From Patescibacteria group bacterium (GTDB lineage: Bacteria > Patescibacteriota > Patescibacteriia > UBA9570 > JAHJKD01): a stretch of DNA of 64,000 bases. This document shows positions 33,829-36,413 of the stretch, piece by piece (within the stretch, counting starts at the first letter, position 1; each line of letters starts with the position of its first letter). The translations under genes were made by a program, and so were the position numbers. Location of the stretch: NCBI GenBank assembly GCA_043798935.1, contig JAZDOC010000019.1, positions 74,322 through 138,321 on the forward strand, read 5' to 3'. Under the pieces are notes generated by a model that worked only from the letters and a program-made list of their open reading frames with translations, made no database searches and was not told where the DNA came from.

Positions 33829-34356
33829 TTAATTACGTTTAGGCGGGAATAAAATTGCCAAAATTTGTTTACCGGCAATTTTTATTCCTTGTGAATTTAT
33901 TTTTGATAATTGATTTAAATAAATTTCTTCACTTATAAAATAACCATCCGCAAATTCTTTCATACCGACTATTAAATCTATCACTTCATTATTAACCGTT
34001 AAGATATATTGGTGTTGACTAATTAATACTAATTTTGTTTGTTTTATTTCACAATTTATTTGAAAATACTTTTCTAAAATAATCTTAACTAACACGGCAT
34101 AATCAATACAATTAGGGCCTGCGATTATCGTGTTGTGCAATAAATATTTCCCTCCCAAAAGAGAGCGCCAGAAGTATCCCCCACTACCGGCTTTTTGATT
34201 AATTACTTTGGCTACTGCGACAACAATACTAATATTATTTAGTTTTGAAATTTCTGTAGATTGCTTTACAATTTCATAACAAAATTCTTCCGTGATCGAA
34301 TTTTCGGTAAGAATATAATTTCTAAATAGTGCTTTTTGTGAATATAGCTGTTTCAT
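33829..34356 (-). CDS. hypothetical protein
   Basis: 175-aa ORF tightly packed between lysS and serS on the same strand. No recognisable motif. Confidence 0.45.
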   Translation of the reverse strand: MKQLYSQKALFRNYILTENSITEEFCYEIVKQSTEISKLNNISIVVAVAKVINQKAGSGGYFWRSLLGGKYLLHNTIIAGPNCIDYAVLVKIILEKYFQINCEIKQTKLVLISQHQYILTVNNEVIDLIVGMKEFADGYFISEEIYLNQLSKINSQGIKIAGKQILAILFPPKRN

Positions 34357-34358
34357 AT

Positions 34359-36413
34359 TTAGAAGCCAATCTGATCGGCAATTTGCTTCATAGCATTTAG
34401 GGCTATTTCTAAAAATTCATCCGTGCTTAAACCTAGTTTTTTACACTCTTTAATGGTCTCGCGATTAACTTTAGCCGCGAAAGCTTTTTCTTTTAGCTTT
34501 TTCTTTAATGATTTAAGTTCAATATTTTGAATTTGTTTATCTGGTCGCACCAAGGCTGAGGCATAAATTAAACCAGTCACAGCTTCACCGCACCGTAATG
34601 CAAAATCCAATAATACTTCCGGTTCTAAGGCTTTATTATCTTGATAATTATGCGCTAAAATAGCATTAATCAATTCTTGAGGATAATTAGCTTCTTTTAA
34701 ATACTGCGAGCCAATAACAGCATGCTTTTCTATTTTATTTTCGATTTCTTCCCAGTCAATATCGTGAAGTAAGCCAGTTGCACTCCATAAAGCCTCATTT
34801 TGATTAAGTGCTTTAGCTAATGCCCCTAGCACTGCCTCGGCTTCTAAACTATGAAAAATGTTTGGCTGTTTATGAACGTGAGAAGTAAGCAATTTAAAAG
34901 ATTGTTCGCGACTAATTGAAAAGTTATTACCGGGAGATAATTTTTTTACGTGTAAGTTGATATTATTTTTTGGACGCAGAAGTGGAAACAGAACACATTC
35001 GCGAACAGGTTTATTCATTAAAAAAGCAAATACTCTTTCGGACAAACCAAACCCACAAGTTGGTGGCATGCCATATTCTAATGCTTCTACAAACTCGCTA
35101 TCGTGCATTTGGGCTTCACTGTCGCCAGCCTCGCGAAGCTTGGCTTGTTCATTAAAACGGGCGGCTTGATCAATAGGATCATTAAGCTCGCTATATCCAT
35201 TTCCTAATTCACTGCCAGCAATAATAACTTGGAATCTTTCTACTAAACGCTGGTCATCGCTCTTTCTTTTAGCAAGTGGCGAAACTTCAACTGGATGATT
35301 AATTAAAAAAACCGGACCAGCTATTTCTTTGCGCACTTGTTTCCATAAGGAATCAATTAAACGCCCTTTACCAACTTTATTATTTACATCAATTTTAAGT
35401 TCTTTACATTTGGTTTGTAATTCCTCAATACTGGCTGTTAGTACATCGATTGAAAATTTTTCTTTAATACTAGTTACATAATCTATTCTCCCCCACTCTT
35501 TACTTAAATCAATATGAAAATTTTTAATATCAAATTTTAAAGTTTGAAAAGTTTTAAAAATAACTTTCTTAAACATATCTTCCACCAATTTCATACCATC
35601 ATCATAGTTTGCATAAGCCATATAAAATTCCATTTGAGTATAATCCTGTAAATGCTCAGCATCGATGCCTTCATTTCGGAATTGACGTCCAATTTCGAAT
35701 GTTCTTTCTAGACCACTAACCATTAACCTTTTTTGCCATAACTCACCCATGGAAATACGTAAGTACAAATCGATGTCTAGCGCGTTATGATGCGTAATGA
35801 AAGGTTCAGCATCGGCGCCACCAGGCGTAGCTTCTAAAACTGGCGTTTCCACTTCTAAAAAATTGTGTCCAATCAAAAAATCTCTGATACTTTGCCAAAA
35901 GACTGCTTTTTTCCGAAAAATATTTTGTAATTCAGAATCTAATAAAATATCTAAATATCTTTTTCGATATCTTGTTTCTTCGTCTTTAATTCCATGCCAT
36001 TTATCTGGAAGCGGCTGTAAAGCTTTACTAAGAATTGAATAACTAGCAACAAGTAATGATTTTTCGCCTTTATGTGTAATAAAAGCCATACCGGAAACTT
36101 CTAGAATATCGCCAATATCGATATTTTTTAAATTTTTATATTTTTCGCTTCCGAGTTTATCTTGCTGAAAAGCTATTTGTAATTCATGACTCTCATCTTT
36201 TAAATTCATGAATGTTAGTTTTCCATGAGTTCGCTGACTCATGATGCGACCACTGACTGTTGCCAAGTTACTTTCAAATTCGTTAAACCTATCTAAAAAA
36301 TAACCAATACTAATGTGTGGTAAACATTTACTGGGATACGAATTAATATTTTGTTTTTTTAGATTATCTAGTTTTATTAGACGATCTTGTTTTTCGGATT
36401 GTATTATTGTCAT
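34359..36413 (-). CDS. lysS: lysyl-tRNA synthetase (class II) fused to a C-terminal HD-domain phosphohydrolase
   Basis: 684 aa. Residues ~1-490 are LysRS (OB anticodon-binding domain; class II blocks FLEVETPVLE, FEIGRQFRNEG, GFGLSERV). Residues ~500-684 carry an HD pattern (H...LLHDID...H...H...D). Confidence 0.9.
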   Translation of the reverse strand: MTIIQSEKQDRLIKLDNLKKQNINSYPSKCLPHISIGYFLDRFNEFESNLATVSGRIMSQRTHGKLTFMNLKDESHELQIAFQQDKLGSEKYKNLKNIDIGDILEVSGMAFITHKGEKSLLVASYSILSKALQPLPDKWHGIKDEETRYRKRYLDILLDSELQNIFRKKAVFWQSIRDFLIGHNFLEVETPVLEATPGGADAEPFITHHNALDIDLYLRISMGELWQKRLMVSGLERTFEIGRQFRNEGIDAEHLQDYTQMEFYMAYANYDDGMKLVEDMFKKVIFKTFQTLKFDIKNFHIDLSKEWGRIDYVTSIKEKFSIDVLTASIEELQTKCKELKIDVNNKVGKGRLIDSLWKQVRKEIAGPVFLINHPVEVSPLAKRKSDDQRLVERFQVIIAGSELGNGYSELNDPIDQAARFNEQAKLREAGDSEAQMHDSEFVEALEYGMPPTCGFGLSERVFAFLMNKPVRECVLFPLLRPKNNINLHVKKLSPGNNFSISREQSFKLLTSHVHKQPNIFHSLEAEAVLGALAKALNQNEALWSATGLLHDIDWEEIENKIEKHAVIGSQYLKEANYPQELINAILAHNYQDNKALEPEVLLDFALRCGEAVTGLIYASALVRPDKQIQNIELKSLKKKLKEKAFAAKVNRETIKECKKLGLSTDEFLEIALNAMKQIADQIGF

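Follow-up and report, generated by a model that had tools for sequence, protein, structure and literature searches.

The window analysed here, a 64,000-nucleotide stretch from a Patescibacteria group bacterium (contig JAZDOC010000019.1 of GenBank assembly GCA_043798935.1, positions 74,322 to 138,321 of the forward strand), carries a gene in which a lysyl-tRNA synthetase (LysRS) is joined to a domain of the HD phosphohydrolase superfamily. The gene lies on the minus strand (34359..36413), as do all of its features located below, and consists of a single uninterrupted open reading frame (ORF) with an ATG start, which encodes 684 amino acids and ends with a stop codon. Its product can be divided into a synthetase, a linker and an HD domain.

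The LysRS part comprises residues 1-482 of the 684-aa protein. The anticodon-binding OB fold (residues 52-128, 36030..36260) was detected by PF01336 (tRNA_anti-codon) with an E-value of 2.4e-11, and the class II catalytic core (residues 144-478, 34980..35984) by PF00152 (tRNA-synt_2) with an E-value of 9.6e-74. Two curated NCBIfam models of lysS scored above their cutoffs, PRK00484 over residues 7-482 (540.7 bits, cutoff 468) and TIGR00499 over residues 6-482 (488.4 bits, cutoff 427.6), and these matches, together with the OB domain and the class II core, assign the protein to class II lysS. No second LysRS was found within the 64-kb window.

The C-terminal part is a complete HDIG-type HD domain of 186 residues (499-684, 34362..34919), as delimited by PF01966, TIGR00277 and an alignment of homologs. 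The Pfam HD model (PF01966) covers residues 521-595 and gave 35.8 bits for the full protein and 37.8 bits for the tail alone (cutoff 22); the NCBIfam HDIG model (TIGR00277) gave 40.7 and 43.3 bits, respectively (cutoff 27.6). These Pfam and NCBIfam matches bear out the central claim of the initial annotation, made from the letters of the DNA, that a complete LysRS is covalently joined to a complete HD-superfamily domain. Free-standing HDIG proteins of 182-197 (typically 184) amino acids from many phyla match the tail over its entire length at about 50% identity. These homologs are annotated as 'HDIG domain-containing metalloproteins', and their Met1 aligns with S499/I500 of the fusion; judged from this alignment, the tail is a whole HD protein and not a fragment.

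In an AlphaFold model, residues 499-684 are all-helical, with a predicted local distance difference test score (pLDDT) of 94.5. The full-length AF2 model (pLDDT 91.2, predicted template modelling score (pTM) 0.72) is confident for both parts, and only residues 482-489 fall below a pLDDT of 50. These residues belong to an 18-aa linker (residues 481-498, PKNNINLHVKKLSPGNNF, 34920..34973), which according to the model would act as a flexible, disordered tether. The linkers of 24 other fusions are 18-70 aa long, polar and unconserved. A fixed docking of the HD domain onto the LysRS active site was considered, but with a pTM of only 0.72 and a disordered linker no claim of that kind is possible.

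The conservation of the metal ligands was counted over 34 fused HD domains, which are only 29-50% identical. The extended motif H..HD..H..H..D is complete in the window protein (H521, H550, D551, H564, H588, E610); these six residues are diagnostic of dinuclear sites such as those of YqeK, PgpH and HD-GYP proteins (PMC8177086). The first metal ligand, H521 (codon 34851..34853), is His in 33/34 fused domains and invariant in the free-standing homologs; the two residues of the HD dyad, H550-D551 (codons 34761..34766), are each retained in 33/34, and so are the second-metal ligands H564 (codon 34722..34724) and H588 (codon 34650..34652). The last acidic ligand is probably E610 (codon 34584..34586), a position that is D or E in 34/34 and was assigned from conservation only. 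All five His/Asp ligands are kept in every free-standing homolog examined. D553, two residues past the dyad (HDxD), is kept in 31/34 fused domains, and the following position, HD+3, is W, Y or F in 30/34 and never K (W554 in the window protein). The motifs quoted in the initial annotation are all in place (HSLEAE at 521, LLHDID at 548, EKHAV at 562, LAHNY at 586 and LLDFAL at 601), and the ligand conservation that it required of homologs was found in 33/34 fused domains; the Asp of LLDFAL (D603), by contrast, is variable among homologs, and E610 is the likelier ligand. Because the ligands are kept in 33/34 domains at an overall identity of 29-50%, selection appears to act on catalysis, and the HD domain is apparently a catalytically active, metal-dependent enzyme with two metal ions.

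A family-specific basic motif lies further towards the C-terminus (residues 634-651, KSLKKKLKEKAFAAKVNR, 34461..34514). It follows the pattern K-S-x-K-K-K-x-K-x-K-x-F-A-x-x-x-x-R, with K638, K639 (K/R), K643, F645, A646 and R651 near-invariant, and may bind polyphosphate or RNA.

Recurrence of the fusion and its linkage to lysS

An exhaustive HMMER search with residues 400-684 as the query was run against 1.84 billion cluster representatives, and the best 149 hits were examined. In 50/149 of these representatives a single polypeptide contains both the HD domain and a LysRS segment, and about 30 of the 50 are full length (650-750 aa). The named members come from metagenome-assembled genomes (MAGs) of Parcubacteria, Peregrinibacteria, Pacebacteria and the 'Patescibacteria group', and one fusion cluster contains RefSeq 'lysine--tRNA ligase' proteins of 752 aa from the cultured actinobacterium Parafannyhessea umbonata (WP_078687421.1, WP_091008991.1). 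The closest relative, found in a scan of GTDB species genomes, is L001, from an independent Patescibacteria MAG; its LysRS and HD parts, likewise fused in frame (695 aa counted from the ATG), are 70% and 46% identical to those of the window protein, and the junction 'LLRPKNN' is common to both proteins. The initial annotation had asked whether the fusion recurs in related lineages; it does, and in unrelated ones as well. When a profile spanning the junction was used in a word-index homolog search, mostly truncated pieces of fusions came back, and none was full length. Neither a word-index search of 5.8 billion proteins nor the exhaustive representative search gave a near-identical copy, the best identity being 51% for the tail and 49-51% for the junction region; sequences from the lineage of the window are thus scarce in public databases.

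If a stop codon had been lost, or the reading frame shifted, between neighbouring lysS and HD genes during sequencing or assembly, such a fusion could in principle result, and it is in keeping with this that the two genes are separate in several relatives, where they abut or overlap (L024, L025), and that runs of A lie close to the junction. However, an in-frame ortholog with the identical junction is present in the independent MAG L001, both parts occur together in 50 representative clusters, and the RefSeq proteins of P. umbonata share the architecture. Moreover, at the point of the fusion that corresponds to the first residue of the free-standing HD proteins no ATG, GTG or TTG is found, S499/I500 standing in place of the ancestral Met, and the composition is even across the junction (GC 0.337 vs 0.352, GC3 0.233 vs 0.263). 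An artefact is accordingly highly improbable and was rejected. The initial annotation had named three grounds on which the fusion might be abandoned, namely lack of an HD-family match, an artefact in the reads, and lack of conserved His/Asp ligands in homologs; all three were examined, and the fusion stood.

The association of this HD family with LysRS takes several forms. The reverse-order fusion, HD-LysRS, is represented by a cluster of 8 members (P0181). As a separate gene, HD lies directly downstream of lysS in L019 (76 nt gap), L024 and L025 (abutting or overlapping), where lysS ends with a stop codon, and one small ORF intervenes in L021 and L023. In L033/34 and L037/38 it lies directly upstream of lysS, in the order mreC-mreD-PBP2-greA-HD-lysS-serS-alr. 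This neighbourhood is matched by the window, in which mreBCD, PBP2, greA, lysS::HD, an orphan ORF and serS follow one another, with alr and ddl beyond. By pairwise identity the fused HD domains are interspersed among the separately encoded ones, a pattern which indicates that one protein family has been repeatedly joined to and split from LysRS. LysRS was the only aminoacyl-tRNA synthetase (aaRS) partnered with the HD domain in the 149 best hits. The association is patchy, and many close LysRS relatives have no HD gene within 6 kb. Such repeated, independent coupling, in both fusion orders and both neighbour orders, offers a strong guilt-by-association handle on an uncharacterised family.

Other partners of the family were also recorded. 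Fusions with modules of nucleotide chemistry include LysRS-NUDIX-HD and LysRS-HAD-HD, although no substrate-specific subfamily could be assigned to the NUDIX and HAD inserts of these relatives. A tight, translationally coupled operon (L021 3057-6007) contains lysS, a 100-aa ORF without a family, HD and CYTH, the last encoding a triphosphate tunnel metalloenzyme whose start overlaps the HD stop. GGDEF proteins are partners as well: the HD domain is C-terminal to PAS-PAS-GGDEF in one fusion, and a 7TM-GGDEF gene lies directly upstream of HD in a Coriobacteriia MAG (L035/L036 2255-4555); these GGDEF-linked members are 60-68% identical to ordinary members of the family. In a Woesebacteria MAG (L039 283-3304), the HD gene and a gene for a 305-aa, class II core-only, EpmA/GenX-like protein are convergent, and a radical SAM gene follows the latter; the HD product shares 67% identity with HD domains fused to LysRS, and the EpmA-like LysRS paralog would not use tRNA. 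The family is, in addition, fused N-terminally to FtsY, the SRP receptor; this fusion and the one with PAS-PAS-GGDEF are P0172 and P0161.

Placement of the HD domain among known families

The initial annotation had described the HD domain as YqeK-type, and this label did not hold. In a scan of 52 HD homologs against hidden Markov models (HMMs), HDIG TIGR00277 was matched by 52/52 (the fused HD domain studied here scored 40.7-43.7 bits), and all other scores were far below the family cutoffs. The NadD-YqeK model was matched by 25/52, and YqeK TIGR00488 weakly by 9/52 family members (best E 6e-6). YqeK membership was rejected on the lack of a TIGR00488 match at E<=1 for the window protein, on the W, Y or F that stands at HD+3 instead of Lys, and on the lack of linkage to nadD, which was not a neighbour of the HD gene in the 8 loci of free-standing homologs that were inspected; PgpH and the HD domain of the GlyRS beta subunit are structurally at least as close. 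Membership of RNase Y, a family further defined by an N-terminal membrane anchor and a KH domain, was rejected at 36.8 bits against a cutoff of 454, with an alignment limited to the HD region. For PgpH (7TMR-HD), the combination of a seven-transmembrane (7TM) receptor module and an HDIGK-motif HD domain is not present, and the GlyRS-beta type was set aside since the dyad and all ligands are retained, the tether is disordered and a free protein exists. Even the eponymous 'IG(K)' of HDIG reads 'ID(W)' in the LysRS-linked family. A profile of the family searched against the PDB found only YqeK structures at E<0.1, weakly (E 6e-4) and through the N-terminal motif only, and a single-sequence search with the tail against PDB sequences gave no HD-family match; designed helical repeat proteins and others without relation to the family came up only as weak chance matches, all at E>=0.013. 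On these comparisons the fused HD domain belongs to a distinct, widespread, so far uncharacterised and structurally unsolved HDIG subfamily of about 184 aa, and not to YqeK. This subfamily may be COG2316-like.

YqeK (COG1713, TIGR00488), the symmetrical Ap4A (diadenosine tetraphosphate) hydrolase of Gram-positive bacteria, including the NadD-YqeK fusion of mycoplasmas, is nevertheless an instructive system for comparison. Both are small (about 190 aa), all-helical HD proteins with the six-ligand dinuclear motif, and the spacing from the first His to the HD is 29 residues in both; YqeK is also the sole solved family found by the family profile at E<0.1 and is among the top fold matches. The differences are that HDIDW replaces HDxxK, with an extra Asp (D553) and without the Lys on which Ap4A cleavage by Sp-YqeK depends, that the distance from the HD to the next His is 14 residues here and about 33 in YqeK, that the fused HD domain has the family-specific C-terminal basic motif, and that the partner is LysRS and not NadD. 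The HD domains of PgpH (a c-di-AMP phosphodiesterase) and HD-GYP proteins (c-di-GMP) differ as well: the LysRS-linked domain has no 7TM receptor module, GYP motif or HH doublet, identity is only 13-17%, and no Foldseek E-value reaches 1e-3.

The HD domain of Escherichia coli GlyRS beta has its dyad replaced by Ser-Lys and binds the acceptor arm, and no nucleotide binding was detected (PMC8464048). Unlike that domain, the fused HD domain keeps all ligands, and it is recent, tethered, separable and also known as a free protein. In view of the ligand conservation, in contrast to GlyRS beta, the LysRS-linked domain is argued to be catalytic. The joining of a nucleotide-product maker to an HD hydrolase has an architectural logic in common with Rel/SpoT, where an HD hydrolase is combined with a synthetase, and with GlnD, where a nucleotidyltransferase is combined with an HD domain; in both, the maker of a product is covalently joined to the HD hydrolase that reverses it (Aravind and Koonin 1998, as cited in PMC9426524).

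In the literature searched, which was that available without subscription, no paper on the LysRS-HD fusion or its HDIG subfamily was found, and the ancient, catalytically dead domain of GlyRS beta was the only HD domain described on any aaRS. Public databases carry LysRS-HD proteins that are annotated merely as 'lysine--tRNA ligase'. Both domains are thus of known kinds, and their recurrent combination in one architecture is apparently undescribed.

Candidate roles of the LysRS-linked HD domain

LysRS is a major and classic source of Ap4A (PMC10148737), and YqeK, which is fused to or clustered with the adenylyl-transferring enzyme NadD, hydrolyses the dinucleotide products of that enzyme (PMC9426524). 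By analogy with NadD-YqeK, the explanation that we favour, at a probability of roughly 0.45, is that the fused HD domain, on its tether, acts as a diphosphatase or phosphodiesterase and clears the adenylylated by-products (Ap4A/ApnN) that LysRS makes. The gene product would be a working class II lysyl-tRNA synthetase, with a C-terminal HD phosphohydrolase, containing two metal ions, on a short disordered tether. The synthetase would make adenylylated side products from lysyl-AMP, namely Ap4A and other dinucleoside polyphosphates of its kind, perhaps p4A or Ap3A too, and the tethered HD domain would hydrolyse them close to the site of synthesis. Such local hydrolysis may limit the alarmone or by-product and may give ADP or ATP back to a cell whose own nucleotide synthesis is scant. 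What was observed is the make-up of the protein from its domains, the complete set of ligands, a tether that is flexible in the model, and the recurrent LysRS-specific linkage; from these we infer the activity of the HD domain and its substrate. Hydrolysis of by-products is favoured because the coupling of the HD domain is exclusive to LysRS, and the pairing of a producer with its hydrolase is backed indirectly by this specificity, by the precedent of NadD-YqeK and by the NUDIX, CYTH and GGDEF partners. For Ap4A such a pairing is plausible as the most economical account, and Ap4A itself is the leading guess for the substrate.

Several observations weigh against this explanation. The Lys at HD+3 (K62 of Sp-YqeK) is needed for Ap4A cleavage (PMC11857287), and the window protein, which YqeK TIGR00488 does not match, has W554 at this position. 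The fold is as similar to PgpH and to the non-catalytic HD domain of GlyRS beta as it is to YqeK. After HDIG, the next-best HMMs were the HD region of RNase Y (49/52) and the HD part of aTrm56-HD proteins (42/52). LysRS and HD are also joined together with tRNA-directed modules, as in LysRS-tRNA_bind-B3_4-HD, LysRS-B3_4-HD and LysRS-DUF2000-HD (P0252). In the Firmicute Caldanaerobius (L027 4690-7676), the HD gene is flanked by secG and by rnr (RNase R), with a gap of 13 nt before rnr, and Firmicutes generally already have YqeK. Finally, one high-GC fusion of 671 aa (P0256) is without any HD ligand yet keeps the HD domain.

Many of these points would be accounted for by the main rival, a phosphodiesterase directed at RNA or tRNA that could process the 2',3'-cyclic or 3'-phosphate ends of tRNA(Lys), or else a nuclease resembling RNase Y, coupled to aminoacylation. 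A model for the former is offered by bacterial CCA-adding enzymes, whose HD domain removes 2',3'-cyclic or 3'-phosphate ends of tRNA. The RNase Y and aTrm56-linked matches, the co-fusions with tRNA_bind, B3_4 and PTH2-like DUF2000, the secG-HD-rnr order, the invariant and strongly basic motif at residues 634-651, and the likeness in fold to the GlyRS beta domain, which contacts the acceptor arm (PMC8464048), all fit such a role. The RNase Y scores of about 37 bits against a cutoff of 454, however, amount to generic HDIG similarity, general repair of tRNA ends is not expected to pair with LysRS alone, and the GGDEF, NUDIX, CYTH and HAD partners together with the EpmA-like neighbour point to small nucleotides. 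The tRNA-type modules may be independent additions to LysRS, since they are found on LysRS without HD as well: DUF2000 in L004 (4792-6693), tRNA_bind in P0310 and others, and B3_4 in P0348. An RNA-directed role is for these reasons considered unlikely, and its narrower form, a catalytic RNA-end phosphodiesterase that works on tRNA(Lys) in cis and clears, for example, the 2',3'-cyclic or 3'-phosphate ends left by nucleases before charging, is quite unlikely.

The GGDEF partners lead to a different proposal, namely a phosphodiesterase of cyclic or linear dinucleotides (c-di-AMP, c-di-GMP, pApA, pGpG) like PgpH or HD-GYP proteins, with no chemical tie to LysRS, the fusion only co-regulating two housekeeping functions. 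The fusion to or adjacency with GGDEF cyclases agrees with it, as does the 60-68% identity of the GGDEF-linked members to ordinary ones, but it leaves unexplained why the family became coupled to lysS, and to lysS only, several times independently and in either gene order, and neither the GYP motif nor the HH doublet of the phosphodiesterase-type motif (H588 is followed by N, A or G) is present; we regard it as improbable. A mainly non-catalytic domain, which would bind the tRNA acceptor arm or sense nucleotides allosterically and so modulate LysRS, as has been proposed for the HD domain of GlyRS beta, is given a similarly small chance. P0256, which after the loss of all ligands retains the domain and the C-terminal basic motif (KSVRKRL..FA..R), speaks for such a domain and suggests a second, non-catalytic role; against it stand the five ligands in 33/34 fused domains and in all free-standing homologs examined, D/E610 in 34/34, and the free-standing proteins, which cannot be aaRS appendages.

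If the HD domain degrades Ap4A/ApnN, as in the explanation favoured here, the fused LysRS would be a self-limiting maker of an alarmone and a counterpart of Rel/SpoT for dinucleoside polyphosphates, and the HDIG subfamily of about 184 aa would be a further family of bacterial Ap4A hydrolases beside ApaH, YqeK and the Nudix enzymes, concentrated in bacteria of the Candidate Phyla Radiation (CPR), with their tight nucleotide economy. If it acts on tRNA instead, a new kind of activity appended to an aaRS would be at hand; healing of tRNA(Lys) ends in cis would make this the first aaRS with a built-in tRNA-healing activity and would give the large uncharacterised HDIG family a role in RNA repair. 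Since P. umbonata, which carries the fusion, is in culture, these proposals are directly testable.

Neighbouring features and minor observations

The window as a whole is housekeeping DNA of about 32% GC, in which ARAGORN found no tRNA or tmRNA genes across the 64 kb and no Rfam family reached its gathering score. A scan for promoters and terminators gave counts equal to chance, and the only near-consensus site lies upstream of greA. The orphan ORF between the fusion gene and serS encodes 175 aa (33829-34356, minus strand) and starts 2 nt past the fusion stop, inside the otherwise conserved greA-lysS-serS block; it matched no Pfam family, and a tblastn search of the related loci that were retrieved found no counterpart.

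In two of the fusions (P0230, P0249), Trp occurs at otherwise invariant Gly positions (e.g. 'WLLHDID', 'SWWGMGIDR'), which may fit lineages with UGA=Gly (code 25) that were translated with a UGA=Trp table. The C-terminal modules of LysRS in CPR bacteria are varied (P0252, P0147, P0149, P0212, P0125, P0310-P0348, L004), and CPR LysRS is a hotspot of appended modules, among them HD, NUDIX, HAD, B3_4, tRNA_bind and DUF2000; the combination of LysRS with a PheRS-type B3_4 editing domain seems to merit a study of its own.

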